A stretch of 64,000 nt of DNA, from contig CAZGWK010000013.1 of assembly GCA_964529285.1 (NCBI GenBank), positions 4,468-68,467 of the forward strand, given 5' to 3'. This stretch comes from an uncultured Actinomycetota bacterium (GTDB taxonomy: Bacteria; Actinomycetota; Geothermincolia; Geothermincolales; RBG-13-55-18). The notes under the pieces are model-generated. The model saw only the letters and a list, made by a program, of their open reading frames with translations, made no database searches and was not told the origin of the DNA. This document shows, piece after piece, positions 10,223-55,563 of the stretch; position 1 is the stretch's first letter, and each line of letters begins with the position of its first letter. The position numbers and the translations under genes were made by a program.

Positions 10223-10413
10223 TCTAAGAGCGGTGGACAATGGCCGCCTGAAAGGCCAGCGACGGAAAGGGGGTTTTCAAGCGGTGCTTTTGTCTGCTTT
10301 TATTAAGGGAACGAATAATATAGAAGGGACCGTGACGGCAGCCGGCTAGTTTCAAACGGGAAACAGCACGATTGGTCTGGGCTCGGCTCGAGGCTCTTAA
10401 GGAGGATTTAAAC

Positions 10414-14513: not shown

Positions 14514-15233
14514 TTATTCCATCTCCTCGACGGGGGTGAAGCCTTTGAGCTGGGCGCGCACGATCAGGCGCAGCGTCGCATCTCCCTCCGGCGCGCAGGT
14601 AGTGAGGGTAAGGATGGCGTCCTCCGTCTGCAGGGTCACGTTCTCGATAGGATCTATGTAGCGGAGCTCATATACCTGGTATTCGTAAAGGCCCCGCGGG
14701 TTCTCGATATATATAACCTCTCCCGGCTCGAGTTCGTCCAGGTGGTTGAAGGGTTTTGTCTTGGTGGTGCGGTGGCCGGAAATGACGCAGTTGCCGGGAC
14801 AACCCGGAAAGCCGGTGTGGGGAAGATGTACCGGCCCCATGGAGAGTATGGTATACAGCTCCTCCTCGTAGTCGCTTCCCTCCCTGACCTCCTCATCTAT
14901 TTCTACCGCGGGGATACGCAAATAGGCGGGTGTCTCGAAGGAGAGGGGAGGGCCGAGGACCTCGTCGTGGGTAAGGGGCTCGAACTCCTCGGCCGCCCTT
15001 GCCTGCTCTTCGCTCGCCTGCGCGGAATCCCGGCGCAAGCGGTCGTAGAGCACGGGCCCCAGGAGAGCCAGGGCGATCAGGATGGCTACGCTCAGTGCGA
15101 TGGCCAGGACGGCTCCTTTTCTGCCTTTCAAGTTCCGACGCCCTCCGTTCAATATGGACGCTATCTTTTTCTCGCCGAGAGAGAAATACGGCCGCCTGCG
15201 GACCCGGCCGGGCTGTTTTCCCCCTGCAGCCAC
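14514..15233 (-). CDS. Sortase (class E-like), membrane-anchored.
   Basis: An N-terminal TM anchor, the His motif GNCVISGHRTT, and the active-site TLTTC motif with a downstream Arg (TLRLIVRAQ). Confidence 0.75.
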   Translation of the reverse strand: MAAGGKQPGRVRRRPYFSLGEKKIASILNGGRRNLKGRKGAVLAIALSVAILIALALLGPVLYDRLRRDSAQASEEQARAAEEFEPLTHDEVLGPPLSFETPAYLRIPAVEIDEEVREGSDYEEELYTILSMGPVHLPHTGFPGCPGNCVISGHRTTKTKPFNHLDELEPGEVIYIENPRGLYEYQVYELRYIDPIENVTLQTEDAILTLTTCAPEGDATLRLIVRAQLKGFTPVEEME

Positions 15234-15415: not shown

Positions 15416-15492
<77 letters not shown>

Positions 15493-19300: not shown

Positions 19301-19329
19301 TTGACATAGATAATGCATAATGATAATAT
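19301..19329 (+). promoter_or_regulatory. Sigma-70-type promoter with consensus -35 TTGACA, a 17-nt spacer and -10 TAATAT, in an AT-rich island upstream of the TetR-led operon.
   Basis: TTGACA (19301-19306), a 17-nt spacer, then TAATAT (19324-19329). The surrounding ~110 nt are far more AT-rich than the rest of the window. Confidence 0.55.
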
Positions 19330-19378: not shown

Positions 19379-19990
19379 ATGAGCATCGTCGATAAAGCGA
19401 AAGAGAGATACGAACAGTACGAGCAGCAGCGTAAAAGGATAATACAGGCCGCAATAAAGGTCTTCGGAGAGACGAACTACGATGTTGGTACCATGGCCAT
19501 GGTCGCAGAGGAGGCGGGCATCTCCGAAGCCATGCTCTACAAACATTTCGACGGCAAGAAAGAGCTCTTCGTAACCTGTTTTCATGAGATAGTCGATGAA
19601 CTGATGTCGCTATACAGGGAATGCTACGCAAGAAACAGGGATGACCCACTGGGATACCTGGAAGACAGTGGCGTGGCGTACCTCAACTACATAAAGTCCT
19701 CCGCCGGTGGCTCCAAGTATTTCTCCCATCTCCTGAGCAGCACCTATGATCCCGAGCTTAAGAAGCCCTTGGTGGATTATTTCAAGGCCAGCGTGGGTAC
19801 GGTAAAGAAAGCGCTGGATCGCGCAAAGGAAGCCGGCGATCTGGGCAAGGACGTGGACACCGAGCTCCTGGCTTGGGATTACGTGGGACAGTATTATGGC
19901 CTCATCCTGGCCAGGGAAATGGATATCAAACCCATGCTCGACGAGAGCAGGATACGCGCCTTCATGAGGGCGATGTTCGGCAGAAAATAA
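19379..19990 (+). CDS. TetR/AcrR-family transcriptional regulator.
   Basis: An N-terminal HTH (TNYDVGTMAMVAEEAGISEAMLYKHF) and a ~200-aa all-helical length. Confidence 0.8.
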   Translation: MSIVDKAKERYEQYEQQRKRIIQAAIKVFGETNYDVGTMAMVAEEAGISEAMLYKHFDGKKELFVTCFHEIVDELMSLYRECYARNRDDPLGYLEDSGVAYLNYIKSSAGGSKYFSHLLSSTYDPELKKPLVDYFKASVGTVKKALDRAKEAGDLGKDVDTELLAWDYVGQYYGLILAREMDIKPMLDESRIRAFMRAMFGRK

Positions 19991-20123
19991 CTTGTAACCT
20001 GAACAGGGGTGATAGAAACCAGCGGCGGCTAAGAGCAGTTTTCTTACGCTCTTGTATAATCCATCGCTCACAGTTCGTGATTTTTCACTTATATAGAGTA
20101 TGCGTAACGAGAGGAGGAGAAAG

Positions 20124-21047
20124 ATGATCATCGACTGCCACGTACATATCTGGATTCCGGGGATGGTCCCCCTGGCCTACGAGGAAGGTTGTATCCGCAC
20201 CATGGTCATGGCGGCGGGTAGGGCCCTGGGGCAGAAGTTCACCTACGAACAGGGCAAGGAGATGCTCTACCCCATGCTCCAGGACGAGAAGGGCGAGAAA
20301 TATCTTGCCCACATGGACGAGGCGGGCATCGACAAGGCGGTGCTCTTCGGGGTGGACTTTGGGGAGGAGATGGGCGAGCCGGAGATCCCCATCTTCGAGA
20401 TGAACAGGATGTACGCGGAACTTTGCAAGGCCCACCCCGACCGCTTCGTCGCCCTCTGCGCCATCGATCCGCGCCGCAAGGGCGCAATGGATCACATAGT
20501 GCAGTGCATCGAGGAATGGGGCATGAAGGGGATCAAGCTCCACCCCTCCGCCGGCTTTAACCCCATGGACCCGGTGATGTATCCCGTTTACGAGAAATGC
20601 GCGGAGTGGGACCTGCCCCTGCTCCTCCATTCCGGGGCGCAGCCGGCGGCTCCGGTGGTGCTGGAGACGGCCCGCCCCGTGTGGATCGCGGAGGCGGCGA
20701 GCAGGTTCCCGGACACCAAGTTCATCGCCGCCCACTTCGGCATGGACTGGTGGCCCGAGGCCATCATGTTCGGCAGGCTGCTGCCCAACCTTTACTTCGA
20801 CTGCTCCTACTGGCAGCTCCTCTTCGGTCTGCACGCAGAGGAGTACTACTCACTGCTGCGCCGCTTTATCGACGATTGCGGCGCGGAGAAAGTGATGTGG
20901 GGCACGGATACCCCGCTTCCCAACGTGCTCGTGCCGCCCAAGGAATGGCTGGATATCCACACCAACCCCAGGACGGATATCGCCTTCACCCCCGAAGAGA
21001 TAAAGACCATCACCGAGGCAAACGCAGCGGAGCTCTTCAAGCTCTAG
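20124..21047 (+). CDS. Amidohydrolase_2 family metal-dependent hydrolase/decarboxylase (ACMSD / LigW / LigI-like TIM barrel).
   Basis: The N-terminus MIIDCHVHIW carries the HxH metal motif and follows a GAGGAGGAG Shine-Dalgarno. Later His/Asp ligands are present (LHPS, AAHFGMDWWPE). The ORF-track start at 20100 is less likely. Confidence 0.75.
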   Translation: MIIDCHVHIWIPGMVPLAYEEGCIRTMVMAAGRALGQKFTYEQGKEMLYPMLQDEKGEKYLAHMDEAGIDKAVLFGVDFGEEMGEPEIPIFEMNRMYAELCKAHPDRFVALCAIDPRRKGAMDHIVQCIEEWGMKGIKLHPSAGFNPMDPVMYPVYEKCAEWDLPLLLHSGAQPAAPVVLETARPVWIAEAASRFPDTKFIAAHFGMDWWPEAIMFGRLLPNLYFDCSYWQLLFGLHAEEYYSLLRRFIDDCGAEKVMWGTDTPLPNVLVPPKEWLDIHTNPRTDIAFTPEEIKTITEANAAELFKL

Positions 21048-21070
21048 GCAGGAGAAAGCGAGGCGCCAGT

Positions 21071-21538
21071 ATGGTTAACGAGGCAATCGTTGGAATGGAG
21101 TTCCCGCCCTTCGAGTTCATTATCGAGAAGGGTAAGATCAAGGAGTTCGCCAGGGCCCTGGGAGACAGGAACCCGGTCTACAGCGACGAGGAACTGGCCA
21201 GGAGCATGGGCTTCCGCTCCATCCCGGCGCCGCCGACCTACACCGCCTCTTTTCTGCATCATGTTCCCGACGAGAACTTCCTCCTCAACATGATGCAGGA
21301 GATGGGCATCTCCGTAGCCACCAGCGTGCACGGGGAATCGGAGTTCGAGTATCTCGCGCCTATATGCGCCGGGGACGTGCTGACCGTAAGGGTAAAGGTA
21401 AAGGACTACTATCAAAAGGAGGGCAAGCGCGGAGGGAAGATGAACTTCATCACCGTCGAATCCACTTATACCAACCAGGATGGCATGCTGGCGCAGAAGG
21501 ACCGCATGCTCTTCATCGAGCGCGAGTCGGCGGCGTGA
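21071..21538 (+). CDS. MaoC-like (R)-specific enoyl-CoA hydratase, hotdog-fold subunit 1.
   Basis: A ~155-aa hotdog-fold protein with the N-terminal-type motif FEFIIEKGKIKEFARALGDRNPVYSDEE. The ORF track merged it into an overlapping frame. The real ATG is at 21071. Confidence 0.75.
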   Translation: MVNEAIVGMEFPPFEFIIEKGKIKEFARALGDRNPVYSDEELARSMGFRSIPAPPTYTASFLHHVPDENFLLNMMQEMGISVATSVHGESEFEYLAPICAGDVLTVRVKVKDYYQKEGKRGGKMNFITVESTYTNQDGMLAQKDRMLFIERESAA

Positions 21539-21544
21539 GGGGGG

Positions 21545-21982
21545 ATGGCCATGCCTGTAGAGAAGCTTTTCTTCGAGGACGTGTCCGAGAGCGACGTGTC
21601 CCCGGAGCTCTCCCTCGAGGTCACCCGCACCCACATCGTCAAGTACGCAGGCGCGGGCGGCGATTTCAACCCCATCCATACCGACGAGACCTTCGCCACC
21701 GCCATAGGACTTCCCTCCGTCTTCGCCATGGGCCTGATGCAGGGAGGATACCTGGCACGCATGCTCACGGACTGGGTGGGCGCAGGAAACCTCCGGCTGT
21801 ACAAGATCCGCTTCACGGGGCAGGTGTGGCCGGGCGAGACCATCACCTGCAGGGGGAAGGTGGCGCGCAAGTATGAGCAGGCCGGCGAGAAGCTCGTCGA
21901 GTGTGAGCTCTCCGTCACCAACCAGTCGGGAGAGAGCAAGATCGAGGGCACGGCAGTGGCAGCCTTGCCGTCAAAGGAGTGA
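21545..21982 (+). CDS. MaoC-like dehydratase, hotdog-fold subunit 2 with catalytic motif.
   Basis: AGAGGDFNPIHTDETFA is the MaoC dehydratase active-site region. It is paired with the upstream hotdog gene in a HadAB/PhaJ-like two-subunit arrangement. Confidence 0.75.
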   Translation: MAMPVEKLFFEDVSESDVSPELSLEVTRTHIVKYAGAGGDFNPIHTDETFATAIGLPSVFAMGLMQGGYLARMLTDWVGAGNLRLYKIRFTGQVWPGETITCRGKVARKYEQAGEKLVECELSVTNQSGESKIEGTAVAALPSKE

Positions 21983-21985
21983 GCA

Positions 21986-23131
21986 ATGGATTTCGGTTTC
22001 TCGGACGAACAGAAGGCCTTCGCGAGATCGGTGCAGGAGTTCGCGGAGAAGGAGATAGCCCCCGGGGCGCGGGAGAGGGAGCAGACGGAGGAGTTCCCCC
22101 ACGATATATGGAAGAAGATGGCCGATTTCGGGCTGTTGGGCCTCCCGGTCCCCGAGGAGTACGGCGGCGGCGGTGCGGACGCGGTGACCACCACCCTGGC
22201 CAACGAGGTCTTCGCCCGCTACTGTCGGGACTTCGACCTCATGATCGAGTGGGGCTCGCACACCATGATCTGCGCCATGCCCATCGCCGTGCTGGGAAAC
22301 GAGGGGCAGAAGCGAAGGTACCTGCCGGACTTGTGCGAGGGCACCCGCATCGGCGCCTTCGCTCTCACCGAACCGGAGGCGGGCTCGGATGCCAGCGCCA
22401 TGAAGAGCAAGGCGGTGAGGGATGGTGATTCCTACGTCCTCAGCGGCAACAAGATATACATCTCCAACGCCCCCCACGCCGACACCTTCGTCACCTTCGC
22501 CAAGACGGCCGGTGAGGATGGAGGCGAGGGCATCTCCAGCTTCATCGTGGAGAGTTCATCCCCTGGTTTCGTGCGGGGCAAGCCCCTGAACCTGTATACA
22601 CCCTCGCTGGGCTCCGACGTGGGTGAGATAGCCTTCGACGACTGCCGCGTGCCGGCGGATAACCTCCTCGGGGTGGAGGGTCAGGGGTTCTACGCCATGC
22701 TCACCTCCCTGGGGTGGGAGAGGCTTGCCTTCGCCGGTTTCCTGGGCGCCATGGCCTGCAACCTCGAGGACTGCATCGCCTACGCCAAGGAACGGCAGGC
22801 CTTCGGCAAGCCCATCTCCAAGTTCCAGCTCATCCAGGCCAAGCTGGCGGACATGGCGGTGGACCTGGAAGCAGCACGCTTGCTCACTTACAAGCTGGCC
22901 TGGATGTTCGACACCGGACAGGTCATCCACCTGCAGGCGGCCATAGCCAAGCTCTTCACCACCGAGGCCGCGCTGCGCAACGCGCTGGAGGCCATCCAGG
23001 TCTTCGGGGGGTACGGCTGCATGACCGACGAGAACGTCGGTCGTACCCTGTGGCCAGCCAAGGCCTCGGTGATAGGCGGGGGGACCTCGGAGATACAGCG
23101 CATCTTCATCGCCAGGATGCTGCTGCGTTAG
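21986..23131 (+). CDS. Acyl-CoA dehydrogenase.
   Basis: MDFGFSDEQKAFARSVQEFAEKE at the N-terminus, ~380 aa, a conserved central beta-domain, and a C-terminal catalytic Glu region (IFGGYGCMTDENVGRTLWPAKASVIGGGTSEIQ). Confidence 0.85.
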   Translation: MDFGFSDEQKAFARSVQEFAEKEIAPGAREREQTEEFPHDIWKKMADFGLLGLPVPEEYGGGGADAVTTTLANEVFARYCRDFDLMIEWGSHTMICAMPIAVLGNEGQKRRYLPDLCEGTRIGAFALTEPEAGSDASAMKSKAVRDGDSYVLSGNKIYISNAPHADTFVTFAKTAGEDGGEGISSFIVESSSPGFVRGKPLNLYTPSLGSDVGEIAFDDCRVPADNLLGVEGQGFYAMLTSLGWERLAFAGFLGAMACNLEDCIAYAKERQAFGKPISKFQLIQAKLADMAVDLEAARLLTYKLAWMFDTGQVIHLQAAIAKLFTTEAALRNALEAIQVFGGYGCMTDENVGRTLWPAKASVIGGGTSEIQRIFIARMLLR

Positions 23132-23215
23132 AGGCGGATTAATACGGTGTATGAATCGAAGGATATCGCCGCGAAGGGATACTTCCGCGTGATAAGGGAG
23201 GGGTGAGACTAAAAA

Positions 23216-24763
23216 ATGGATATGTGGAGCATCATGAAGAGGGGCTTCATGTACAGACCCGACAGGGACTGTGCCATCTGCGCTGAGAAGCGGGTTACCT
23301 ACCGGGAGTTCGAGAAGCGCATCAACCGCCTGGCGAACGTGCTTTACGGCTTGGGACTGCAGAAGGGCGACCGGGTATCGGTTCTGGCCGAGAATTCCAT
23401 GATGGCCAAGGAAGCCATGATCGGCATCGAAAAATGCGGCCTTGTCTGGGCGCCGCTCAACTTCCGGCACGTTCCGGCGGAGCACGTTTACCATCTAAAC
23501 AACGCCGGATCCAGGGCCGTTATCATGCAGCAGCAGTTCGCCGAGGGCATCGCCTCGGTGCGGGACGAGCTGGAGACGGTGGAGCACTTCATCGTGGACG
23601 GAGAGCGCTGCGGTGGCATGGAGTCCTACGAGGAGCTCATGGCCAGGGCCAGCGCCAAGCATACCGCGGTCGATATTGACGAGGAAGACCCGGTGGCGCT
23701 CATGTACACCTCCGGCACCACCGGCAAGCCCAAGGGGGTGCTGCACACCCACAAGAGCTTCGGCGCCCTGGCCACCTTCGCGGCCATCGAGCTGGGAATA
23801 CAGGACAGCGACGTGGTCATCTACGTGGCCCCCATCAACCACGGCGCGGGCATACTGCTCCCGCCCCACCTCATGATGGGGGTGCCCAACATCCTCATAG
23901 CCCACCTGGACGTGGACTACATCCTGGACGTCATCCAGAAGGAAGGGGTTACCACTATGTGGCTGGCTCCCACCATCATCTACTTCCTCCTGGCTTATCC
24001 CAATCGGGCCAATTTCGACCTCTCCTCGCTGAGGTCGCTTCCCTATTCATCGGCCCCCATAGCGGTGGAGAGACTGAAGGAGGCGCTCGATGTCTTCGGG
24101 CCCGTCTTCGCCCAGGCCTACGGGCTGGTGGAGTGCCCCGTGATCAGCATGTTGTCCAGGGACGACCACGTGATCGGGGGCAGCGAGGAACAGACCAGGA
24201 GATTGGGGTCGGCGGGAAGGGAGATCATCTACACCCGGGTGCGCGTGGTCGACGACGACGGCAACGAGCTGCCCCCCGGTGAGACGGGGGAGATCATCGT
24301 GAACAGCCCCCTGGTGATGAAGGAGTACTGGCGGGATCCCGAGGCAACGGCGCAGGCGCTCAGGGAGGGGTGGCTGTACACGGGGGACGTGGGCTACCTG
24401 GACGACGACGGCTACCTCTTCATCGCCGACCGCCTCAAGGACATGATTATCACCGGGGGATACAACGTATACCCCAAGGAGGTGGAGAACGCCATCTTCA
24501 AGCACGCGGCGGTTCTCGAGGCAGCGGTTATCGGCGTCCCAGACGAGACCTGGGGGGAGTCGGTGAAGGCCTTCGTGGTGCCCAAGCCGGGCATGCAGGC
24601 CACTGAGGAGGAGATAATCGCCCTGTGCAGGGACAACCTCGCTTCGTATAAGAAGCCCAAATCGGTGGAGTTAGTCGATGCCCTGCCCAAGAACATGGCG
24701 GGCAAGATCCTCAAGACGGAGCTGCGCGCCCCCTACTGGGAGGGCAGGGAGCGCCAGGTTTGA
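23216..24763 (+). CDS. AMP-dependent acyl-CoA synthetase/ligase.
   Basis: The AMP-binding motif I LMYTSGTTGKPKGV, a YGLVE motif, and motif III GEIIVNSP...YW...GWLYTGDVGYLDDDGYLFIADRLKDMII. Confidence 0.85.
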   Translation: MDMWSIMKRGFMYRPDRDCAICAEKRVTYREFEKRINRLANVLYGLGLQKGDRVSVLAENSMMAKEAMIGIEKCGLVWAPLNFRHVPAEHVYHLNNAGSRAVIMQQQFAEGIASVRDELETVEHFIVDGERCGGMESYEELMARASAKHTAVDIDEEDPVALMYTSGTTGKPKGVLHTHKSFGALATFAAIELGIQDSDVVIYVAPINHGAGILLPPHLMMGVPNILIAHLDVDYILDVIQKEGVTTMWLAPTIIYFLLAYPNRANFDLSSLRSLPYSSAPIAVERLKEALDVFGPVFAQAYGLVECPVISMLSRDDHVIGGSEEQTRRLGSAGREIIYTRVRVVDDDGNELPPGETGEIIVNSPLVMKEYWRDPEATAQALREGWLYTGDVGYLDDDGYLFIADRLKDMIITGGYNVYPKEVENAIFKHAAVLEAAVIGVPDETWGESVKAFVVPKPGMQATEEEIIALCRDNLASYKKPKSVELVDALPKNMAGKILKTELRAPYWEGRERQV

Positions 24764-24805
24764 CGGACCCGAGTCAATGGGATGGAGAGAAAGGGGAATG
24801 CCGTA

Positions 24806-26095
24806 ATGTCCAAATACGACGCTTTGTTCGAGCCCATTACCCTCAAGAACGTGGAGCTCAAGAACCGCATTGCCATGGCGCCGATGAACGTCTGTTTCAC
24901 CGGCCCCAATCACATGGTCAGTAAACAGCAGACCGCATACTACGCCGCACGCGCCATGGGTGGGGCGGGGTTGATCATCATCGAGGCGGTGGGGGGCACC
25001 GACCACGAAACGGTCAAGACCTACGAGGCGCACAACAACCTCATGCTGGTCTACCCCTACCAGGCGGCTGACCATTCGGAACTGGTGGAGACTATCCATA
25101 CCCACGGAGCGAAGGTGATGTGCCAGATCGCCCCGGGAGCCGGCCGCCAGGGGAGCTCGGAATATTCCGGCGTCCAGCCCGTAGCCCCCTCTCCCATTCC
25201 CTGGGCACCCCAGGAGGAGATGATGCCCAAGGGCGTGAAGATGGAGGACATGGCGAAGATGATGGGGCTGTTGGGGGGATCGTCGACCCTGGTGCCCGAG
25301 ACGCCCCGCGAGCTGAGGAAGGACGAGATAGCGGTGCTCGCGGAGGACATGGGCAAGTCGTCCCGCCTGGCCAGGATCGCCGGCTACGACGGGGTGGAGC
25401 TGCATGCCCCCCACGGCTACCTGCTGCACGAGTTCCTCTCGCCCCGCTCCAACAAGCGAGATGACGAATACGGGGGTTCCCTGGAGAACCGGGCCCGTTT
25501 CATGTGTGAGTGTATAAAGAACATGCGCCAGGCAGTGGGCGATGAATACCTGGTAACGGTGAGGATCAGTGCCGATGAGCACCAGGAGGACGGCTTCCAC
25601 GTTGAGGAAACCATCGAGTTTGCCAAACTGGCCATCCAGGCGGGGGCGGACGGCCTCCACCTCTCCGACGGTTCCTACGAGTCCATGCGCTATTTCCTCC
25701 CCGATACCGACGGGCAGGTGGTTGAAGAGTCCGGGATCATAAAGGCCGGCATAAGAGAGGGATTGGGCGATGACTATCCGGTCATATGCCCCTCGGTGCA
25801 CGATCCCGACCTGGCGGCCGAGAGCGTTGCCTCGGGCAAGGCGGACATCATCTCCCAGGGACGGGCCCTCATCGCCGACCCCGAGTGGCCCAACAAGGTC
25901 AGAGAGGGGAAGGTTGAAGATATTGTGAGGTGCACCCGCTGCAACAAGGGGTGCATCCAGCGCTTCGTCCTGGGCCTCCCATCCCGCTGCGTGCTCAATC
26001 CCGAGATGGGACAGGAACAGTACATAGAGAAGTACAACACCAGGCAGCTGCTGCCCTTGCAGGAGAGGGTCTGGAAGATACCCAAAGAGATCTGA
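24806..26095 (+). CDS. NADH:flavin oxidoreductase, Old Yellow Enzyme family (ene-reductase / 2,4-dienoyl-CoA reductase-like FMN domain).
   Basis: LKNRIAMAPMNVCFTG at the N-terminus, the HGAKVMCQI and ELHAPHGYLLHEFLSPRSNKRDDEYGGSLENRARF OYE signatures, and the TIM-barrel FMN-binding pattern. The start at 24806 (MSKYDALF) versus 24782 is uncertain. Confidence 0.75.
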   Translation: MSKYDALFEPITLKNVELKNRIAMAPMNVCFTGPNHMVSKQQTAYYAARAMGGAGLIIIEAVGGTDHETVKTYEAHNNLMLVYPYQAADHSELVETIHTHGAKVMCQIAPGAGRQGSSEYSGVQPVAPSPIPWAPQEEMMPKGVKMEDMAKMMGLLGGSSTLVPETPRELRKDEIAVLAEDMGKSSRLARIAGYDGVELHAPHGYLLHEFLSPRSNKRDDEYGGSLENRARFMCECIKNMRQAVGDEYLVTVRISADEHQEDGFHVEETIEFAKLAIQAGADGLHLSDGSYESMRYFLPDTDGQVVEESGIIKAGIREGLGDDYPVICPSVHDPDLAAESVASGKADIISQGRALIADPEWPNKVREGKVEDIVRCTRCNKGCIQRFVLGLPSRCVLNPEMGQEQYIEKYNTRQLLPLQERVWKIPKEI

Positions 26096-26221
26096 AAGTC
26101 GACTGCCAATGCATGTTAAGAAGACGAGACGATATGCGCGCCGGATATGCAGGAGAGGGTAATGATCGGACTGCTGGCGGCGACGGCAGGCAGTCTGGCA
26201 CGCTGAAGGAGGGCTGAAAGT

Positions 26222-27406
26222 ATGGATAGTATTAGAGGCAAAACGGCCATCGTGGGCATAGGCGAGATACCCACCGGCATCTACCCGGAGAGGTCTTTCA
26301 TCGAACAGGCGGTAGCGGTCGGCGAGATGGCCATACGGGACGCGGGTATCGACAAGGAGGAGATCGACACCGTGATCCCCATCATCGCCGTGGCCAACCC
26401 CATAGACAACGCCAACCTGGTCTGTTCCTGGCTGGTGGAGGAGATGGGGATGGGAAAGACCTGCAAGGCAAATTTCGTCTGTGCCTCCGGCGGGTCGAGT
26501 TCCTCCAACTCCCTCAAGACCGCCATGGGGATGATCGTCTCCGGGCTGTCCGAGGCGGTGCTGGTGGTGCACACCGACAAGCTGGGGACGGGCCTGGACA
26601 TGGGAGCGGCCATCGCCCAGTTCGCGGTGGTCTCCATGAGCCAGGAGTACGAGATCCCTTACGGTTTCAGCCAGCTCGCCCTGGCGGGGTTCCTGCAGCA
26701 GCGCTACATGTACGACACCGGCACCACGGAGAGGCAGATAGCAAGCGTAGTAGAGACCCTGCGCAAGTGGGCGGCGCTCAATCCCAATGCCATGCTGCGC
26801 GAGTTGAGGACCGCCGACGATGTGCTGGCCTCCAAGATGATCTCCGCCCCGGTGAGGAAAAGGATGATGAACAAGCTGGCCGACGGCGCCTCTGCCTTCA
26901 TCGTCACCAGCGCGGAGAGGGCCCGGCAACTCAGCGACCGGCCGGCCTACATCCTGGGGGTGGGCTCCCGCTGTACCAACTTCACCGCCACCGAGGGACA
27001 GGGTGATTTCTACCAGACCTGGACTCCGGCGGCGGATGATGCCTTCGCCATGGCGGGCATCGGACGCGAGGACATCGACGTGGCGGAACTCTACGATGCC
27101 TTTCCCACCTTCATCCTCATCTCCATGGAACTTGTCGGGTTGTGCAAGAGAGGCACGGCGGGGGTTTTCTTCGAGGAAGGCAGCGCCGCGCCGGGAGGAA
27201 AACTCCCGGTGACCACCAACGGCGGCATGATGGCCCAGGGCCACACCGGCGCCGGTGGCGGCGTGGCGGTGCTGGTCGAGGCGGCCCGCCAGGTTATGGG
27301 CAAGGCGGGGGAGCGGCAGGTGCCGGACGTGAAATATGCCCTGGATACGGCCTCAGGAGGCATCGGTATGGACTTCCACGTCGGCATACTGGGAAGCGAG
27401 GTGTGA
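26222..27406 (+). CDS. Thiolase-like protein of the SCP-x / lipid-transfer (Ltp) type, the kind that partners with DUF35 proteins.
   Basis: The thiolase nucleophile region NFVCASGGSS, a C-terminal GGMMAQGHTGAGGGV loop, and no classic biosynthetic thiolase signature. A DUF35 gene follows immediately. Confidence 0.8.
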   Translation: MDSIRGKTAIVGIGEIPTGIYPERSFIEQAVAVGEMAIRDAGIDKEEIDTVIPIIAVANPIDNANLVCSWLVEEMGMGKTCKANFVCASGGSSSSNSLKTAMGMIVSGLSEAVLVVHTDKLGTGLDMGAAIAQFAVVSMSQEYEIPYGFSQLALAGFLQQRYMYDTGTTERQIASVVETLRKWAALNPNAMLRELRTADDVLASKMISAPVRKRMMNKLADGASAFIVTSAERARQLSDRPAYILGVGSRCTNFTATEGQGDFYQTWTPAADDAFAMAGIGREDIDVAELYDAFPTFILISMELVGLCKRGTAGVFFEEGSAAPGGKLPVTTNGGMMAQGHTGAGGGVAVLVEAARQVMGKAGERQVPDVKYALDTASGGIGMDFHVGILGSEV

Positions 27407-27409
27407 GAG

Positions 27410-27823
27410 ATGAACGAATATAACCTGCCGCTGCCGCTGATAACCACCCTGAGCAAGGTCTTCTGGGACGGGTGCAGGGAGAACAAGCTTCTCTACCAGC
27501 ACTGCAGGGACTGCGGGAGGGTCATCTTCTTCCCCAAACACCTCTGCCCGGACTGCATGGGCCACGACCTTGAATGGCTGGAGTCCAAGGGAAAAGGAGT
27601 GATCGACACCTTCACCGTGACCTACGAGGGCGCGCCGCCCGCCTTCATGGGGGTGACCCCCTACTGCGTGGCCGTCATCCGCATGGACGAGGGCTACCGC
27701 ATGATGAGCAACATCATCGACTGCGACTTTGAGGAACTCGAGTGCGAGATGCCCGTAGAGGTAATCTTCCAGCCGGTGACGGAGGAGATCACCCTCCCTA
27801 AGTTCCGGCCCGCAAAGTGCTAA
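27410..27823 (+). CDS. DUF35 OB-fold / zinc-ribbon protein (thiolase partner subunit).
   Basis: A CxxC...CxxC rubredoxin-like ribbon (HCRDCGRVIFFPKHLCPDCMG) followed by an OB-fold. It starts 4 nt after the thiolase stop. Confidence 0.8.
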   Translation: MNEYNLPLPLITTLSKVFWDGCRENKLLYQHCRDCGRVIFFPKHLCPDCMGHDLEWLESKGKGVIDTFTVTYEGAPPAFMGVTPYCVAVIRMDEGYRMMSNIIDCDFEELECEMPVEVIFQPVTEEITLPKFRPAKC

Positions 27824-27856
27824 TGGTCTACGTTGCGATAGAAAGGGGAATTCATA

Positions 27857-28513
27857 GTGCATGAGGGAGATACGAGCAAGCTGTTTTTGCTGACCCAAGC
27901 CGTTGCCGCCTTGGAGGAGGACGACCTCAATGATCTCCTTGAAGGTCTTATCTCCGTTGCAACACCTCCACTGGAGATAATCAACGCTCTCTCGAGGGGT
28001 ATGGAAAAAGTTGGAGCGATGTACGATGGAGGTATATATTTTCTTTCGGAACTGATCTTCTCGGGGGAGATATTCAAGGAGGCCATGGGCAGAATCAAGC
28101 CTCTCCTGGAAGATGAAGGGTGCGGGGAATCCATGGGTAAGGTGCTCATGGGAACGGTAAGAGGGGATATACACGACCTGGGCAAAAACATTGTAATAGT
28201 CCTTCTGGAGTGCGCGGGCTATGAGGTGATCGATCTCGGTGTGGACGTACCGCCCGAGGTTTTTGTTCAGGCCCTCAAAGACGATTCTATAACCCTGGTC
28301 GGGATGAGCTCATTGCTGACAACCGCTTTTGAGGCCATGGAGCAGACAGTCGAGGCTGTTTGTGAGGCGGGCTTGAGAGATGACGTAAGGATCATGATTG
28401 GTGGCGGGTCGACCAGCGACATGCTGAAGGAGAAGATCGGGGCCGACTTCTTCGGTAAGAACGCCACGGCGGCAGTTGAATTCGCAAACATGGTTTACGG
28501 GAAACAGCGGTGA
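27857..28513 (+). CDS. Cobalamin-binding corrinoid protein of a methyltransferase system (MtaC/MtbC-like).
   Basis: An N-terminal helical cap followed by the B12-binding Rossmann domain with the D-x-H-x-x-G motif (GDIHDLGKNIV) and a GG(G/S)xS region (IGGGSTS). It starts at a GTG with GAAAGGGGA 7 nt upstream. Confidence 0.8.
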   Translation: MHEGDTSKLFLLTQAVAALEEDDLNDLLEGLISVATPPLEIINALSRGMEKVGAMYDGGIYFLSELIFSGEIFKEAMGRIKPLLEDEGCGESMGKVLMGTVRGDIHDLGKNIVIVLLECAGYEVIDLGVDVPPEVFVQALKDDSITLVGMSSLLTTAFEAMEQTVEAVCEAGLRDDVRIMIGGGSTSDMLKEKIGADFFGKNATAAVEFANMVYGKQR

Positions 28514-28524
28514 AGGTGGCACCC

Positions 28525-29853
28525 ATGTCCGATCGCGAGCAACCATCGCATGGTCCGGGTGTATTCGAAGCGTTCTATACCCGCAAGTGGGAGGTCTTCG
28601 AGGCGGGGTTCTTGAAGGATAAGCGGATAGATTTACTCGCTGCCAGGCTGTTTCGTCATGCTACTCGCTTCAGGAGATTCAAAGATCCATTGGTCGAGGA
28701 TTCCTTTAAAAGGAAACTCGAACGGTGCTATACAGCCATCGCTATCGGTATTCCTGACCGCGTGCCTCTTATCAGCAGCGGGATAAATTTCTACCCCGCG
28801 TATTACTCGGGCTTATCCTTCGCCGACTACGTTAACGACAGAAAAAAGAACCTGGCGGCATTCTTCAGATTCTCGCGCGAGATGTGTGGTTTTGATGCCA
28901 TGTTCCCATCGCAGATCGCATGCATGGGCCCGCTGATTCAAGCCACCAAACTGGATGTGCTCAAGCTGCCCGGCATCGATCTGCCGGACAACGTTGGCTA
29001 CCAGTACGTTGAGAGGGAAAGGCTGAGGCCGGAGGAGTACAGGCAGTTTCTCGACGAGAAATGGGATTTCTTCAGGAAAACGATCCTTCCTCGCATGAGC
29101 CCTCTTCATCGCGGTGGAAGGGGCTGGGAGACCGGAACGCTTCTCAAGGCGGCCTTCGCGGCAACAGCGTATGCGCATTCCTTCAACCACGCAATAGATA
29201 TCATAGAGAAGAACTACGGAATACCCATACTCCCAGGCGCCTTTTCGTTCGCCCCCTACGATCTCGTATCTTTTCTCTTCAGAGGTTTGGAGGGTATATC
29301 CGGTGACCTGTTCCGGCGTGCCGAGGACCTGGAGGGTACCGTGGATATGATGGTCCAGGTCATAACTATGGCCTGTGAGAACATCGCCGTGCTTTCGGGG
29401 ATAAACAGCGCCGTTATCCTTTGCGAACGTGCCTTTTCTTTGTCCCCCCGCCAGTTCAAGCGTTTCTACATGCCGTATTTGAAGAAACTCGTGCATAACC
29501 TGATTGACCGGGGCATAATACCGCTGCTTGCTCTTGAGCAGGATTGCAGCCATCTTATCGAGTTCATACTGGAGTTGCCACCCCGGAAATGCATTGTAAA
29601 TCTGGATACCTCGGATATCTTCAAGGCAAAGAAGATACTGGAGGGACATACGTGCATAGCGGGCAACGTTCCCATGAACCTCATGGTCACCGGGACGCCG
29701 CAAGACATCAGGGACTACTGTGCCAGGCTTATACAGGAACTGGCGCCCGGAGGGGGGTTCATGATGAGCGGTGCTTTAGGTATTCCCGACAACGCCAGGG
29801 AGGAAAACGTGCGGGCCATGATCGAATATACGCTGGAGCAAGGAAAATACTAG
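28525..29853 (+). CDS. Uroporphyrinogen decarboxylase (URO-D) family methyltransferase (MtaA/MtbA-like corrinoid methyltransferase).
   Basis: A ~440-aa URO-D/MtaA-type TIM barrel adjacent to the corrinoid protein. The ATG at 28525 has GAAGGTGG 4 nt upstream. The ORF-track GTG at 28510 overlaps the upstream stop. Confidence 0.7.
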   Translation: MSDREQPSHGPGVFEAFYTRKWEVFEAGFLKDKRIDLLAARLFRHATRFRRFKDPLVEDSFKRKLERCYTAIAIGIPDRVPLISSGINFYPAYYSGLSFADYVNDRKKNLAAFFRFSREMCGFDAMFPSQIACMGPLIQATKLDVLKLPGIDLPDNVGYQYVERERLRPEEYRQFLDEKWDFFRKTILPRMSPLHRGGRGWETGTLLKAAFAATAYAHSFNHAIDIIEKNYGIPILPGAFSFAPYDLVSFLFRGLEGISGDLFRRAEDLEGTVDMMVQVITMACENIAVLSGINSAVILCERAFSLSPRQFKRFYMPYLKKLVHNLIDRGIIPLLALEQDCSHLIEFILELPPRKCIVNLDTSDIFKAKKILEGHTCIAGNVPMNLMVTGTPQDIRDYCARLIQELAPGGGFMMSGALGIPDNAREENVRAMIEYTLEQGKY

Positions 29854-29889
29854 AGAGATCGCGATTCAGAACCGCCAATATCGAGCCAT

Positions 29890-30948
29890 ATGGATTGCGG
29901 CCTTCTCACGGGCATCCCAGGTTGCAGGGAGGCAGAAGACTTGAAATCGAGCGTTCACAAGCTGAAGGTCAAAGAGCTTAAAAAGGGGCGCCGTGCCAAC
30001 CCCCTGTTTTTCCCCGTTACCTTTTCCATGTTCGGTTTGTTTAATGCGGCACGTATGATCACGAAGATCCTTGGGCGCATCTACGATGGTTACGGACCCA
30101 CAGATACGAGTCCGGAGAGCCAGGAATATTTCATCAACTATCTCGATTTTGTTGGCTGGAAACCTTTCCTGCAGGAGGTGAAGGATCTGGCTCCCATCAG
30201 CCCTTATTTCCTTGCAAACGAAGCCGTGGTCTTTGGCGCCTTACGAAGGATGATCAAGTCCCAATGCATGAAAGAAGCCAGGACAGAAGCGCAGTCGGAT
30301 CTGTGGCAGGAAATGGAGGAGAATGCGAGAAAACTGGGTGTGGATATGGTTGGTTATTCTCTATTGAACAGGGACTATATCTTCCAGGGTATGCATGTCT
30401 TCTACCCGAATCTTGTCGTGCTGGGCATGGAGATGAGATGGCAGGGCATGTTGGATGCGCCGGGTATTGGAGCGGGCAAAGAGACCATGAGGACCTACCA
30501 TAGACTGGGCGCAGCCACCAACAAGCTGGCCGATTTTTTTATGGACCGCGGCTACCGCGCCCAGCCGATGCCACCTTATTCCGCCTACGTCCTCTGGCCG
30601 GCCATAGCAAAAGAAGCCGGCCTGGCGGAACGGGGCCTTCACGGGCTGATGATAACCCCCCGATTCGGCCCGTTACAACGCTGGTCTGCGGTAGCGGTCG
30701 AGGCCGCGCCTCTGCCCGAGACGGATGCCGTGCGGCTGGACTGGCTAGAGGGATTCTGCGCATCCTGCAGGCAATGCATCCAGGCGTGTCCTGCGCAGGC
30801 GATAATGAGCGAGCCGGTTCGCGGCCGGGGTGAGCTGGTAAGGTATATAGATAACGAGAGATGCTATCCTTATTTCGCCCGTTACAAGAGCTGCTCCATA
30901 TGCATCAAAGTATGTACGGCAAAGCTTAGGAAGGAAGGGCGAATCTGA
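29890..30948 (+). CDS. QueG/RdhA-superfamily protein (epoxyqueuosine reductase-like) with two [4Fe-4S] ferredoxin motifs.
   Basis: The central block AGLAERGLHGLMITPRFGPLQRWSAVAVEAAPLPETD matches the QueG core GLGWIGKNTLLI...FGSW. The C-terminus carries CASCRQCIQACP and C..CSICIKVCT cluster motifs. I see no strong Shine-Dalgarno at the annotated ATG. Confidence 0.65.
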   Translation: MDCGLLTGIPGCREAEDLKSSVHKLKVKELKKGRRANPLFFPVTFSMFGLFNAARMITKILGRIYDGYGPTDTSPESQEYFINYLDFVGWKPFLQEVKDLAPISPYFLANEAVVFGALRRMIKSQCMKEARTEAQSDLWQEMEENARKLGVDMVGYSLLNRDYIFQGMHVFYPNLVVLGMEMRWQGMLDAPGIGAGKETMRTYHRLGAATNKLADFFMDRGYRAQPMPPYSAYVLWPAIAKEAGLAERGLHGLMITPRFGPLQRWSAVAVEAAPLPETDAVRLDWLEGFCASCRQCIQACPAQAIMSEPVRGRGELVRYIDNERCYPYFARYKSCSICIKVCTAKLRKEGRI

Positions 30949-44218: not shown

Positions 44219-45865
44219 CTAAACGGACGGAGGGGGATCCGACCATGTCCTGTCCTTGATCAGCTCCAGCAACCTCGAGAGTTTGCTTTCCTCCACGGCC
44301 GAGAGGTCGAAATCCGCCTCTCCCGTGTAGAACCCCGCATCGGCTGCTTCTCCCGGGTCCAGGGCATTCCGGATCTTGCGCTGCCAGTGGTTGTAGTTGC
44401 CCTGCATGGGGCCGAAGAGTTTGCGCATGCGCGGGTCGAAATTGAAACCCTGCTCCATGCACTGCTCGATGGCGGTTATGGCGAAATCGACGCTCAGCGG
44501 GTCTATGGCCTCGGTATGCGAGCGGTTGCGCGGGTCGTAGGCGAAGATCTCCTCGCAGTGCGCGTAGGCGCTGTTTTCGTAGAGGGTCATCCAGGCGCAG
44601 TCGCCCATGTCATCCAGTATGCCCCCCCTCTCTATCCATTCCTCCTTGGTCTTCTGGCTGAACTCCGCGTAGTCGACCAGCTCGTCCCAGGTCTCGTCCT
44701 TGGGCCATCCCGTGGAGAACTGCCCCCCGGGACGGTAGATGAGGGGTATTATGGTAACCCGCAGGAAATTCATCCAGAACATGGACCCCATGGCGGGGAT
44801 GCCATGAAAAAGCTCCAGGCCCATGCCGGCGTGCTCGGAGAGCACCCGCTTGAGCACCTTCTCCTGGTAGGCCATCTCGCTTTCGGAATCGCATGCCAGA
44901 ACCACCATGAGGAGGTACTTGAGGGAATCTCTTAAGACCGCCCTCAGGGCATGCTTACCGGGGAGCTTTTTCAGGAAGTGGGGCAGGATGTTAAGGAGAT
45001 AACCGGCAATCGAGGCCTTGGTGACCACGTATCCGATCTCGGCTTCGCCCAGTTTATACCCCGCGTCCGCGAACGTCTCCTTGGTGGGGAAAAAGCACAG
45101 GAAGAACTTGAGCTCGTCGGGCACCTCCGCGGCATAGTCCAGCAGCATCCCGCTGCCCTCGCTGGACGGTGGCCCCGGCCAGTGGAAGAGCTTCAGCGCG
45201 CAGCGCGTGAACACCCCGTTACCCCCCATGGCCCCCACGTACCCCCGCATTATCCCCCGCAGGGAGGGGCCCGGGCCGTCCCCGTTGAACCACCCCATAC
45301 CTGATCCCAGGCTACCCAGTTCGAGGATCTCTCCATCGGGCAGCACCCACTCGACTCCGAGGAGGTTGCGCGGGCTGTAGCTCATGTACTGGCCGTCCCA
45401 TCCCACTCCCCAGCACGACGTGGCGCTGGCCAGCGGCGAGCAGGCGGGACCGGCACCGATGATGTGGGTGTTGAGCCCGAGCTTCATGGCCTCGGCCTGG
45501 AGTTGCGCGCCGGATACGTAAGGCTCGACCACCGCGTACATGTTCCTCTCGTCTATCTCCAGGATGCGGTTCATCCGCCTCAAGTCGATCTGTACCACGC
45601 CGCCTTCCGTCGGGCCGCCGTGGGCCCCCCAGCCGGTGCTGAACGCCTTGAACTTCAGCCCGTGTTCGTTGCATATCCTCACCACGGCTTGCACTTCCGG
45701 GGTAGTGGAGGGCAGGGCCACGGCCGCGGGTCGCGGCACCCAGATGTCGGGATCGGTGTTGAATGAAGGCTGCCAGGCATAGCCGTCGAGCACCGCGGGT
45801 TCCCTGGAGACGTTTTCCTGCCCCAGGGCTTCTTCCAGTTCCCTGTACGCTTGCGCGGGGATCAC
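44219..45865 (-). CDS. FAD-linked oxidase (PCMH/VAO-type FAD_binding_4 family, glycolate oxidase/D-lactate dehydrogenase-like).
   Basis: The N-terminal FAD-binding domain ALPSTTPEVQAVVRICNEHGLKF...STGWGAHGG, ~550 aa, and a C-terminal substrate domain. Confidence 0.8.
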   Translation of the reverse strand: MIPAQAYRELEEALGQENVSREPAVLDGYAWQPSFNTDPDIWVPRPAAVALPSTTPEVQAVVRICNEHGLKFKAFSTGWGAHGGPTEGGVVQIDLRRMNRILEIDERNMYAVVEPYVSGAQLQAEAMKLGLNTHIIGAGPACSPLASATSCWGVGWDGQYMSYSPRNLLGVEWVLPDGEILELGSLGSGMGWFNGDGPGPSLRGIMRGYVGAMGGNGVFTRCALKLFHWPGPPSSEGSGMLLDYAAEVPDELKFFLCFFPTKETFADAGYKLGEAEIGYVVTKASIAGYLLNILPHFLKKLPGKHALRAVLRDSLKYLLMVVLACDSESEMAYQEKVLKRVLSEHAGMGLELFHGIPAMGSMFWMNFLRVTIIPLIYRPGGQFSTGWPKDETWDELVDYAEFSQKTKEEWIERGGILDDMGDCAWMTLYENSAYAHCEEIFAYDPRNRSHTEAIDPLSVDFAITAIEQCMEQGFNFDPRMRKLFGPMQGNYNHWQRKIRNALDPGEAADAGFYTGEADFDLSAVEESKLSRLLELIKDRTWSDPPPSV

Positions 45866-48390: not shown

Positions 48391-48708
48391 GGTCGGGGGC
48401 AGGGCTCCGGGTGCTCCTTGGCGGCGGCCACGTCCTCTTCGTCCTTTGCGCGGGGAGCTCTCACCGTAGCGGTTGCTTCGTGCAACAGGCTCCGCATCTA
48501 TGTTTGGCCTCATGTAACCTTTTACGTCTGCGGCGTGTTTCCCCATTCAATACAAACAGTCAACACAACAGCCCGGGCACACGCGGATGCGGGAGAAGGA
48601 GGCTGTCCCGGGGCTGCACGGCAACAACTGGTTAGTCTATCAGGGGGCATCTCTTTGCCTTTTTTCTGAAAGCGTAGGGTAAGGCATAAGTCAAAGGAGG
48701 TAATGTTT

Positions 48709-51460: not shown

Positions 51461-51467
51461 CCCCTCC

Positions 51468-52523: not shown

Positions 52524-52540
52524 GCTCGCTCCTTTCACCC

Positions 52541-53626: not shown

Positions 53627-53696
53627 ATGCATCTCCTCTTCCATGCACTCGTTGTTTTCAGGAATGCAATATTTAAATTAAATGTGTTGTTGGATG

Positions 53697-54752: not shown

Positions 54753-54779
54753 GTGATTCTCCTCCCTGTCTAAAAGTAT

Positions 54780-55412: not shown

Positions 55413-55418
55413 AAATAG

Positions 55419-55432
55419 ACCAACTAGTCGGT
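55419..55432. promoter_or_regulatory. Imperfect 14-bp palindrome ACCAACTAGTCGGT, 7-20 nt upstream of the TetR start codon and overlapping a TATAAT-like box. Candidate autoregulatory operator with a leaderless or short-leader promoter.
   Basis: 12 of 14 positions are self-complementary. On the minus strand the context is AATTATACCGACTAGTTGGTCTATTTATG. Confidence 0.4.
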
Positions 55433-55563
55433 ATAATTATTTTAGCAGCCGCTTTCTTCCTGTCAAGCAAGATTGAGAGGCTTGATCGGGAGGGCGGTGT
55501 CCGCTCGGCCTTTGCAGGCAAGGCAAAAGCTATTTCGAGAAGTGCGGGAAACGAATGGATCGC

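Follow-up and report, generated by a model that had tools for sequence, protein, structure and literature searches.

In the characterised O-demethylase and Cdm systems (MtvABC, OdmABCD, MtoABCD, CdmBCA), a corrinoid protein with a B12-binding_2 cap, a Rossmann domain, and a DxHxxG signature is encoded next to, and in translational coupling with, a methyltransferase I (MT-I) of about 440 amino acids that has the fold of uroporphyrinogen decarboxylase (UroD). CdmB, the chloromethane:corrinoid methyltransferase I of Acetobacterium dehalogenans, groups with the O-demethylase MT-I proteins MtvB, OdmB, VdmB, and MtoB (PMC13222342). The RdhA/QueG superfamily of B12- and iron–sulfur (Fe-S)-dependent reductases contains the respiratory PceA (Sulfurospirillum/Desulfitobacterium), the catabolic, non-respiratory NpRdhA/BhbA, and the epoxyqueuosine reductase QueG. 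Putative RdhAs of a 'hybrid' type, with an ExE motif, three transmembrane helices at the N-terminus, and no twin-arginine translocation (TAT) signal, have also been described (Atashgahi 2019, PMC6797604). The locus analysed here joins members of both groups. It is located at positions 27857 to 30948 on the plus strand of a 64-kb stretch of contig CAZGWK010000013.1 from a probable Actinomycetota metagenome-assembled genome (MAG); the whole stretch is termed the window, and coordinates given without a locus name refer to it. Its three genes (the trio) encode a corrinoid protein, an MT-I, and a short cytoplasmic RdhA-like Fe-S protein. Each of the three proteins is a member of a known superfamily; the novelty lies in the joining, within an acyl-CoA operon, of a corrinoid demethylase pair with a member of an uncharacterised family of short cytoplasmic RdhA-like proteins. 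The reading to which we give a rough probability of 0.45 is that of an operon for the breakdown of a substituted aromatic or alicyclic carboxylate in the form of its coenzyme A (CoA) ester, with the trio as a substituent-removal module, in which the MT-I demethylates the substrate and the RdhA-like protein removes a second group.

The three open reading frames (ORFs) on which a preliminary description of this DNA had been based (27857–28513, 28510–29853, and 29890–30948) were found in place on the plus strand; the probable starts of the second and third genes are located further downstream, at ATG 28525 (442 amino acids) and TTG 29941 (335 amino acids), respectively. E-values for all three gene assignments were far beyond chance.

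The first gene (27857–28513) encodes a protein of 218 amino acids composed of a four-helix B12-binding_2 cap (Pfam PF02607, 1.2e-13) and a Rossmann B12-binding domain (PF02310, 9.9e-24). The DxHxxG motif noted in the preliminary description was confirmed as DIHDLG at residues 104–109 (nt 28166–28183), and is followed by SSL at residue 151 and then by GGG, which together make up the signature of cobalamin binding in the His-on, base-off mode. The best solved relative is the O-demethylase corrinoid protein of D. hafniense (4jgi, 4.9e-45); the match to TIGR02370 was strong in E-value (3.5e-45) but stayed below the cutoff of that model (153.8 bits vs. 215). The protein is thus assigned, by its domains and motifs, as a standard corrinoid protein of the methyltransferase type. 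A role as B12 chaperone in RdhA maturation was considered and rejected, the protein being of the standard methyltransferase type and coupled to the MT-I.

The second gene (28525–29853) starts at an ATG that is preceded by a Shine–Dalgarno sequence (AAGGTGG) overlapping the stop codon of the corrinoid gene, with a spacer of 11 nt; the resulting length of 442 amino acids is that of the public gene call. The Pfam match to URO-D (PF01208, 8.3e-20) is restricted to residues 227–440, and the NCBIfam models for hemE and MtaA were reached with only 25–35 bits at cutoffs of 244–400. When the PDB was searched by sequence, CdmB (9rui; 5.3e-36, 127.8 bits) was the only strong solved relative, and UroD was matched at 1e-3. 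The AlphaFold2 (AF2) model (pLDDT 93.3) is a UroD TIM barrel extended at the N-terminus, with human UROD as best match in Foldseek (3e-12); UROD has likewise been reported as the closest fold of CdmB (PMC13222342). Because CdmB is matched at 5.3e-36 and true UroD at 1e-3, genes 1 and 2 are read as a corrinoid protein and MT-I pair, and the second gene product is assigned to the MtvB/OdmB/MtoB/CdmB clade and not to the uroporphyrinogen decarboxylases. A comparison with CdmB over 295 aligned positions gives 27.8% identity, and the methyl donor is therefore not transferable by homology. Homologues from Asgard archaea are 38–42% identical to the window MT-I. They were considered as a tie to the chloromethane-specific CdmB clade, which was rejected (99.8 bits to CdmB vs. 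127.8 for the window protein).

Neither an MT-II (MtrH, pterin-binding, or MtaA-type) nor a RACE/RamA domain was found among the operon genes or the approximately 50 ORFs of the 64-kb window that were scanned. In lacking an MT-II gene, and in being part of an acyl-CoA operon of a probable Actinomycetota MAG instead of a C1 or acetogenic context, the locus differs from the O-demethylase and Cdm systems. The preliminary description had called the methyltransferase set incomplete, which holds for this scope, and had regarded incompleteness as unusual, which is a weak premise: the activating enzyme of cdmBCA is encoded outside the cluster and is not co-regulated with it, and in the same study the completeness of the systems is scored genome-wide and not by synteny alone (PMC13222342). 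Since the cdmBCA activator is unlinked as well, and unlinked activators are normal in characterised systems, the absence of an activator from the window is best taken as not diagnostic.

The third gene (29941–30948) probably starts at TTG 29941, 8 nt downstream of a GGGAGG sequence, in agreement with the public call and with the N-termini of homologues. Among the NCBIfam models, the reductive dehalogenase (RDH) model TIGR02486 was matched at 8.1e-19 and the QueG model TIGR00276 at 1.2e-6; no match to PF13486 was obtained, and Pfam returned matches of the Fer4 type only. In the sequence search of the PDB, PceA (1.6e-15 and 8.2e-13) was followed by NpRdhA (8.8e-8) and QueG (6e-3). The order was the same in Foldseek with the AF2 model of the protein (pLDDT 80.7): PceA at 7.4e-12 and NpRdhA at 6.7e-9 (TMq 0.51–0.57), versus QueG at 3e-5 and MMACHC at 1e-2. 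By profile and by model, the protein can be placed in the RdhA/QueG superfamily, on the dehalogenase side; the superfamily named in the preliminary description is upheld, and the epithet 'QueG-like' is not. Because the protein fails the curated RDH cutoff and has neither a TAT signal nor an rdhB gene, the name 'RdhA-like' is nevertheless preferred to reductive dehalogenase.

In sequence, as aligned by HMMER, PceA Tyr246 corresponds to Y203 (codon at 30496) and PceA Arg305 to R264 (codon at 30679) of the RdhA-like protein. Of the two CxxCxxCxxxCP motifs that had been reported, the first is present (FeS1: C290, C293, C296, C300, and P301; nt 30757–30789); the second reads Cx9CxxCxxxC without proline and corresponds to the RdhA-type second cluster (FeS2: C325, C335, C338, and C342; nt 30862–30915). 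Both Y203 and R264 are invariant in an alignment of nine sequences. Among 120 representatives of the family, Y203 was found in 116 (97%), R264 in 118 (98%), and none of the eight cluster cysteines in fewer than 116. Loss of cobalamin-binding core residues, a possibility raised in the preliminary description, was not observed: the active-site residues that align with the RdhA catalytic dyad are retained. The protein ends ten residues after the last cluster cysteine and has no C-terminal tRNA-binding extension; no ATPase domain of the ASKHA type was detected in it, the Fer4-type Pfam matches and the RdhA fold being all that was seen. No twin-arginine RRxFxK motif, no rdhB, and no convincing transmembrane helix was found for it. 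At its N-terminus, the maximum 19-residue hydropathy is 1.38, in a segment that homologues do not share. The stretch beginning KGRRANPLFFPVTF was considered as a twin-arginine signal or membrane anchor and rejected, the RRxFxK motif being absent, the hydropathy below the transmembrane range, and the segment unconserved.

PceA is the best match both in sequence and in structure. It shares with the RdhA-like protein the Tyr/Arg dyad, the FeS1 motif, and an FeS2 motif with distal first cysteine; unlike PceA, the RdhA-like protein lacks a twin-arginine signal, rdhB, and rdh accessory genes, and is shorter by about 130 residues. With NpRdhA/BhbA, it has in common the cytoplasmic location without TAT signal or RdhB, the RdhA fold, the two [4Fe-4S] motifs, the active-site Tyr, and the carbon-catabolic context. 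Some members of its family also carry a reductase fusion as in NpRdhA/BhbA, whereas no reductase is fused to the window protein. It differs further from NpRdhA/BhbA in length (335 vs. ca. 700 amino acids), in remoteness of sequence (E 9e-8), and in having Arg in place of Lys488 of NpRdhA, that is, a dyad of the PceA type. QueG is similar in size and is likewise a cytoplasmic B12/2×[4Fe-4S] reductase (B12 being predicted for the RdhA-like protein); in contrast to QueG, the RdhA-like protein fails the family model, lacks the tRNA-binding domain, and is found in an unrelated gene context. The 'hybrid' RdhAs (PMC6797604) resemble it in being uncharacterised, in lacking TAT and rdhB, in being known from the genomics of subsurface and sediment anaerobes, and in being annotated as hypothetical protein or ferredoxin; the RdhA-like family differs from them in having no convincing transmembrane segment and in its acyl-CoA-linked gene context.

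An exhaustive profile search returned 373 clusters (50% identity; proteins of 300–360 amino acids) at E<1e-30 and 1769 at E<1e-10; canonical RdhAs are certainly among the latter. In five family members the RdhA-like module is fused to a C-terminal Pyr_redox_2 NAD(P)H-flavoprotein reductase, as in self-sufficient catabolic RdhAs, and because of these fusions it is read as a terminal electron acceptor. One fusion each was found with an S-adenosylmethionine (SAM)-dependent methyltransferase, a Peptidase_U32, and a GNAT acetyltransferase (fusion proteins P0125, P0131, P0132, P0134, P0149, P0116, P0122, and P0065).

The trio forms the end of a run of 12 closely spaced plus-strand genes (19379–30948). 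The first of these encodes a TetR-family regulator (19379–19990; TetR_N, 1.9e-13); a TetR gene is found at the corresponding place in the JGI relative. Directly 5′ of it, at 19301–19329, the region has its best match to a sigma-70-like promoter (TTGACA-17-TAATAT plus TG extension), which is a match to consensus only; the number of such sites equals that expected in shuffled sequence. The TetR gene of the window is followed by genes for an Amidohydrolase_2 protein of the decarboxylase/hydrolase superfamily (20100–21047; PF04909, 4.7e-36), a HadA/HadB-like pair of MaoC/hot-dog hydratases (21059–21538 and 21545–21982), an acyl-CoA dehydrogenase (ACAD; 21986–23131), and an AMP-forming acyl-CoA ligase (23216–24763). 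Next comes an FMN enzyme of the old yellow enzyme (OYE) family (24782–26095; Oxidored_FMN, 3.5e-65), a protein of 437 amino acids without the C-terminal NAD(P)H/FAD domain, which matched NCBIfam models of the BaiCD/FadH type over the N-terminal 375 or so of about 640 profile positions. An SCP-x-type thiolase-like protein (26222–27406) and its DUF35/ChsH2 OB-fold partner (27410–27823) complete the series upstream of the trio; all of these genes are on the plus strand. As pointers to the pathway substrate, NCBIfam subfamily matches were rejected, those of ligase, ACAD, and amidohydrolase being generic or below cutoff.

The gap between the DUF35 gene and the corrinoid gene measures 33 nt, and that between the MT-I gene and the RdhA-like start 87 nt. 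Neither promoter-like sites nor intergenic terminator-like sites were found between 27824 and 30948; the sole terminator-like match in the trio (28873–28889) lies inside the MT-I gene, and such sites are fewer than in shuffled sequence. The gene 3′ of the RdhA-like gene is convergent. An Rfam scan of the window detected no cobalamin riboswitch or other regulatory RNA, and one tRNA only. Because the trio has no promoter-like or intergenic terminator-like site of its own, is tightly spaced, and is followed by a convergent gene, it is assigned to the 3′ end of a catabolic operon headed by the TetR gene and not to a free-standing methyltransferase cluster.

Related loci (handles beginning with L) were collected by searches of contigs. 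With the single RdhA-like protein as query, no loci were found among genome contigs, and an alignment of six sequences did find loci; among metagenome contigs, the alignment gave no loci, and P0005 alone gave one (L021). The closest RdhA-like homologues are 54–56% identical to the window protein. In the JGI locus of P0005, the same operon is present, with the RdhA-like gene directly after the UroD-like gene and a 272-amino-acid Fe-S protein in the place of the corrinoid protein. Direct succession of UroD-like and RdhA-like genes is also seen in L006, with thiolase, DUF35, and OYE genes close by, and in L021; in L012 one gene intervenes. Downstream of DUF35, L021, the most closely related operon, carries a short-chain dehydrogenase/reductase (SDR) gene, a UroD-like gene (product 55% identical to that of the window), and an RdhA-like gene with an internal deletion. 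The latter (L021 10001–10310) retains approximately residues 1–62 and 297–352, out of frame with each other, which points to a pseudogene or else to an error of the assembly. In L010, the RdhA-like gene comes immediately after the MaoC pair. The 272-amino-acid 'Fer4' protein of the corrinoid slot was considered as a degenerate RdhA or corrinoid protein, and rejected as belonging to a separate poly-Cys Fe-S family.

More distant homologues (31–38% identity), from Actinomycetota and other MAGs, are encoded in L011–L015 and L020 among genes for ACAD, OYE, CoA-ligase, thiolase/DUF35, MaoC, and amidohydrolase_2 proteins; the amidohydrolase_2 gene recurs beside the RdhA-like gene in L012, L014, L015, and L020. 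A UroD-like gene is present in three of these loci (L011, L012, and L013), and the RdhA-like gene occurs without one in L010, L014, L015, and L020. Locus L011, the most informative of them, has the order TetR-RdhA-like-ligase-MaoC-MaoC-ACAD-thiolase-DUF35-OYE-OYE, and a corrinoid protein and MT-I pair 8 kb upstream, within the same 20 kb. The L011 MAG carries DUF1302/DUF1329 genes, which are typical of Gram-negative bacteria, and its lineage is apparently Gram-negative and different from that of the window. Since the thiolase-like protein (L011 14916–16094 vs. window 26222–27406), the DUF35 protein, and the ACAD are nevertheless 73, 66, and 56% identical between the two lineages, horizontal spread of the acyl-CoA/RdhA-like operon is concluded.

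Molybdopterin oxidoreductases of about 704–741 amino acids (Fe4S4 + Molybdopterin + Molydop_binding) are encoded in L012 (7550–9664 and 10825–13014), L013 (9136–11289), L014 (7535–9760), and L015 (5850–8006). Between the end of such a gene and the RdhA-like gene downstream, there are 10–16 nt in L012 and L014 and approximately 50 nt in L015; L012 has a second one just downstream of the RdhA-like gene, and in L013 the oxidoreductase gene comes after the UroD-like gene, with a distance of about 6 kb to the RdhA-like one. A molybdopterin enzyme is thus suggested as an alternative partner of the RdhA-like family.

Two-gene units of corrinoid protein and MT-I without RdhA-like gene were found in L024, L025, and L026, and the same pairing occurs in L011. 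In L024 (4645–12960), L025 (2780–11156), and L022 (9001–16150), the pair or the MT-I gene alone is located beside a series FAD_binding_4–CCG (HdrD-like)–FAD_binding_4, which is under a regulator of the MerR/TetR type. Two secreted paralogues of 263 and 271–272 amino acids, without known domain, follow the corrinoid and MT-I pair in L024 and L025; they were considered as MT-II or activator and rejected, as secreted paralogues without such domains.

The trio differs in composition from the genes that precede it. The GC content at third codon positions (GC3) is 0.63–0.66 in the trio versus 0.81–0.88 in the eight genes upstream (20100–27823), and the UroD-like genes of the relatives L021 and L023 have values of 0.80–0.84. 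Nucleotide identity to L021 amounts to 82–84% through the DUF35 stop codon, ends exactly at 27824, and then collapses; the counterpart cassette in this close relative is SDR/UroD/RdhA-like. The MT-I and the RdhA-like protein of the window are each about 55% identical to the relatives' versions, which are 74–89% identical among themselves. The GC3 break coincides exactly with the end of L021 identity, which indicates that the compositionally foreign trio replaced a functionally equivalent 3′ cassette by recombination, with a corrinoid protein as its own addition. Joint transfer and retention of the three genes are modest evidence of joint function.

In the proposed pathway, the ligase, the ACAD, the MaoC pair, the OYE, the thiolase/DUF35 proteins, and the amidohydrolase_2 would process a substituted acid as CoA thioester. 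The MT-I would take a methyl group from the substrate, which is most likely an aryl methyl ether, and load it onto the Co(I) corrinoid of the protein encoded next to it. The RdhA-like protein would act as a separate cytoplasmic reductase: electrons would flow via its two [4Fe-4S] clusters to a buried cobamide of its own, and a further substituent of the same skeleton would be removed, with Tyr203 as proton donor and Arg264 tuning it as in PceA. This substituent would most plausibly be a halogen ortho to the hydroxyl group freed by demethylation. Enzymes of the NpRdhA and CprA types act on ortho-halophenols. For D. hafniense PCP-1, O-demethylation and dehalogenation have been described as proceeding stepwise on the same precursors (as cited in PMC3727330). 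An MT-II for the discharge of the methyl-corrinoid and a RACE-type ATPase for the reactivation of Co(II) would be encoded at other sites of the genome. Whereas the assignments to family and fold, the conserved residues, the continuity of the operon, the recurring neighbourhoods, and the foreign origin of the cassette are shown by the sequences, the direction and the substrate of each reaction are inferred, as are the sharing of one substrate and the coupling of the two reactions.

The RdhA-like protein is read as a catalytic reductase and not as a corrinoid activator because its relatives are found in acyl-CoA operons, often next to an MT-I-like gene and usually without a corrinoid protein in the vicinity, and because some of them are fused to flavoprotein reductases. 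Of the two roles envisaged in the preliminary description, the one that is hence favoured is the cobalamin-dependent reduction of a pathway intermediate, given the conserved Tyr/Arg dyad and clusters, the corrinoid-free acyl-CoA operons, and the reductase fusions; for the other, in which the protein would be a redox partner to the corrinoid protein or reactivate it, the same data on conservation, neighbourhood, and fusions offer no support.

Several points weigh against the proposed substituent-removal module. The exact succession of corrinoid protein, MT-I, and RdhA-like genes was seen only in this organism, that is, in the window and two identical SRA contigs. Most related loci have an MT-I-like gene without adjacent corrinoid protein gene, and either the partner of these MT-I-like proteins is remote or they have another function. 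Because of the pairing with molybdopterin oxidoreductases in L012–L015, the partner of the RdhA-like protein is not fixed, and more distant members of the family occur in unrelated contexts (e.g., sulfate permeases, PAS kinases). At 68.6 bits, the match to TIGR02486 is below the cutoff of 160.35, and cobamide binding is inferred from the fold and the aligned residues. No MT-II or activator gene was seen among the scanned ORFs of the window, and the sequences do not favour a halogen over another leaving group.

The alternative that survives best, although it is still unlikely, is that the RdhA-like protein is a B12/Fe-S reductase that acts on a non-halogen group (aryl hydroxyl or methoxy, epoxide, or activated C–O) of a CoA-bound intermediate, downstream of or parallel to the demethylase. 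QueG, which reduces an epoxide, is a non-dehalogenating member of the superfamily, and the RdhA-like protein remains below the RDH cutoff; the family is large (373 clusters) and part of operons for general acyl-CoA catabolism in MAGs of subsurface Actinomycetota, and the fusions to a SAM methyltransferase, a U32 peptidase, and a GNAT protein suggest varied chemistry. The molybdopterin oxidoreductases in L012–L015 fit as well; enzymes of this type perform aryl dehydroxylations and hydroxyl transfers in anaerobes. However, the conserved residue pair is the Tyr/Arg dyad of PceA, the similarity to PceA and NpRdhA in both sequence and fold is far above that to QueG, and we know of no RdhA-clade enzyme that cleaves an aryl C–O bond. 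The more general proposal that the short RdhA-like proteins constitute a new branch of the RdhA/QueG superfamily, devoted to the B12-dependent reductive removal of non-halogen groups from CoA-activated aromatic or alicyclic acids (e.g., at an aryl C–O bond that the neighbouring MT-I exposes or creates), in company with corrinoid demethylases or, in other lineages, molybdopterin enzymes, is doubtful too.

That the adjacency has no functional meaning, and that cassette replacement at the 3′ end of the operon merely brought together genes for unrelated substrates, is improbable. The slot between DUF35 and the UroD-like gene is indeed variable (SDR in L021, one or two poly-Cys Fe-S proteins in L023 and the P0005 locus, the corrinoid protein in the window); no RdhA-like gene comes after the UroD-like gene in L023, that of L021 is internally deleted, and each part also occurs without the other, as corrinoid protein and MT-I without RdhA-like gene (L024–L026) and as RdhA-like gene without UroD-like gene (L010, L014, L015, L020). 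Yet the order UroD-like/RdhA-like has been kept at the same operon position in two versions with about 55% identity, the trio shares its deviant GC3, its tight spacing, and its lack of internal regulatory signals, and L011, from another lineage, has all components within 20 kb.

It is quite improbable that the RdhA-like protein takes the place of RACE/RamA and serves the corrinoid protein as a redox partner of low potential or reactivates it by reduction. Such a role would account for the lack of a RACE/RamA domain among the scanned ORFs and for a gene with two low-potential [4Fe-4S] clusters two genes 3′ of the corrinoid gene; unlinked, shared activators are, however, normal in characterised systems. 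Moreover, both close and distant relatives occur in loci without any corrinoid protein, a pure electron carrier needs no conserved Tyr203/Arg264 dyad, there is no ATPase domain to drive the uphill step from Co(II) to Co(I), and the NAD(P)H-flavoprotein reductase fusions mark the RdhA-like module as an electron sink.

It is highly improbable that the MT-I methylates the cobamide of the RdhA-like protein directly, with subsequent reductive release of the methyl group and the corrinoid protein as an optional addition. UroD-like/RdhA-like pairs without nearby corrinoid protein and the lack of an MT-II in the window would agree with such a route, but an MT-I requires an exposed corrin for docking, as in the model of CdmB–CdmC, and the cobamide of the solved RdhAs (PceA, NpRdhA) is buried behind a narrow substrate channel; the window also encodes a canonical corrinoid protein that is translationally coupled to the MT-I.

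A genuine queG can be dismissed: the TIGR00276 match over residues 231–308 and the QueG structures at 3e-5 in the fold search are far surpassed by PceA and NpRdhA, the QueG model is reached with 27.8 bits at a cutoff of 200, the C-terminal tRNA-binding domain is missing, and the neighbourhoods are acyl-CoA catabolic without tRNA-modification genes. Neither this identity nor a promoter- or terminator-like site of its own, both of which the preliminary description had named as objections to its idea, was found.

Several further features of the window were recorded. Three tandem paralogues of 351–409 amino acids, 34–38% identical to each other, are encoded on the minus strand at 51468–54752; each has a helix-turn-helix-like N-terminus, a poly-Cys run (ICCCCSCCCG, VCNCCTCCCG, or ICCCCGCCCA), and a C-terminal 2×[4Fe-4S] ferredoxin domain. 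They are 28–31% identical to the 272-amino-acid proteins (VCFCCECCC) encoded before the UroD-like gene in L023, and Pfam and NCBIfam name no family for them beyond Fer4. A FAD_binding_4 gene is located at 44219–45865 (minus strand). A second AMP-ligase, a nitronate-monooxygenase-like enzyme, TetR and SDR proteins, a second amidohydrolase_2, and a two-subunit CoA transferase are encoded within 48703–50394, 50537–56442, and 60754–63765, and the region looks like a catabolic island. UPF0182 (1e-285), sortase, and DUF5719 proteins are encoded within 10372–13335, 14514–15233, and 7769–9385 and, together with homologues that bear the name 'Actinomycetota bacterium', point to a source among the uncultured Actinomycetota; the sole tRNA of the window, tRNA-Met (CAT), lies at 15416–15492.

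Methyl transfer and RdhA-type reduction, two predicted cobamide-dependent chemistries, are thus joined in one catabolic operon, which supplies a compact set of three proteins. The short, TAT-less RdhA homologues with catalytic dyad form a sizeable unannotated family, associated with acyl-CoA genes in subsurface Actinomycetota and other MAGs, whose members are labelled 'ferredoxin' or 'hypothetical' in the databases. If they are dehalogenases, catabolic organohalide turnover would be broader than surveys of organohalide respiration suggest. If they are not, they would represent a third type of reaction in the superfamily, besides dehalogenation and epoxyqueuosine reduction, and the removal of non-halogen groups, if true, would be a previously unrecognised step in the anaerobic degradation of lignin-type compounds by subsurface Actinomycetota.

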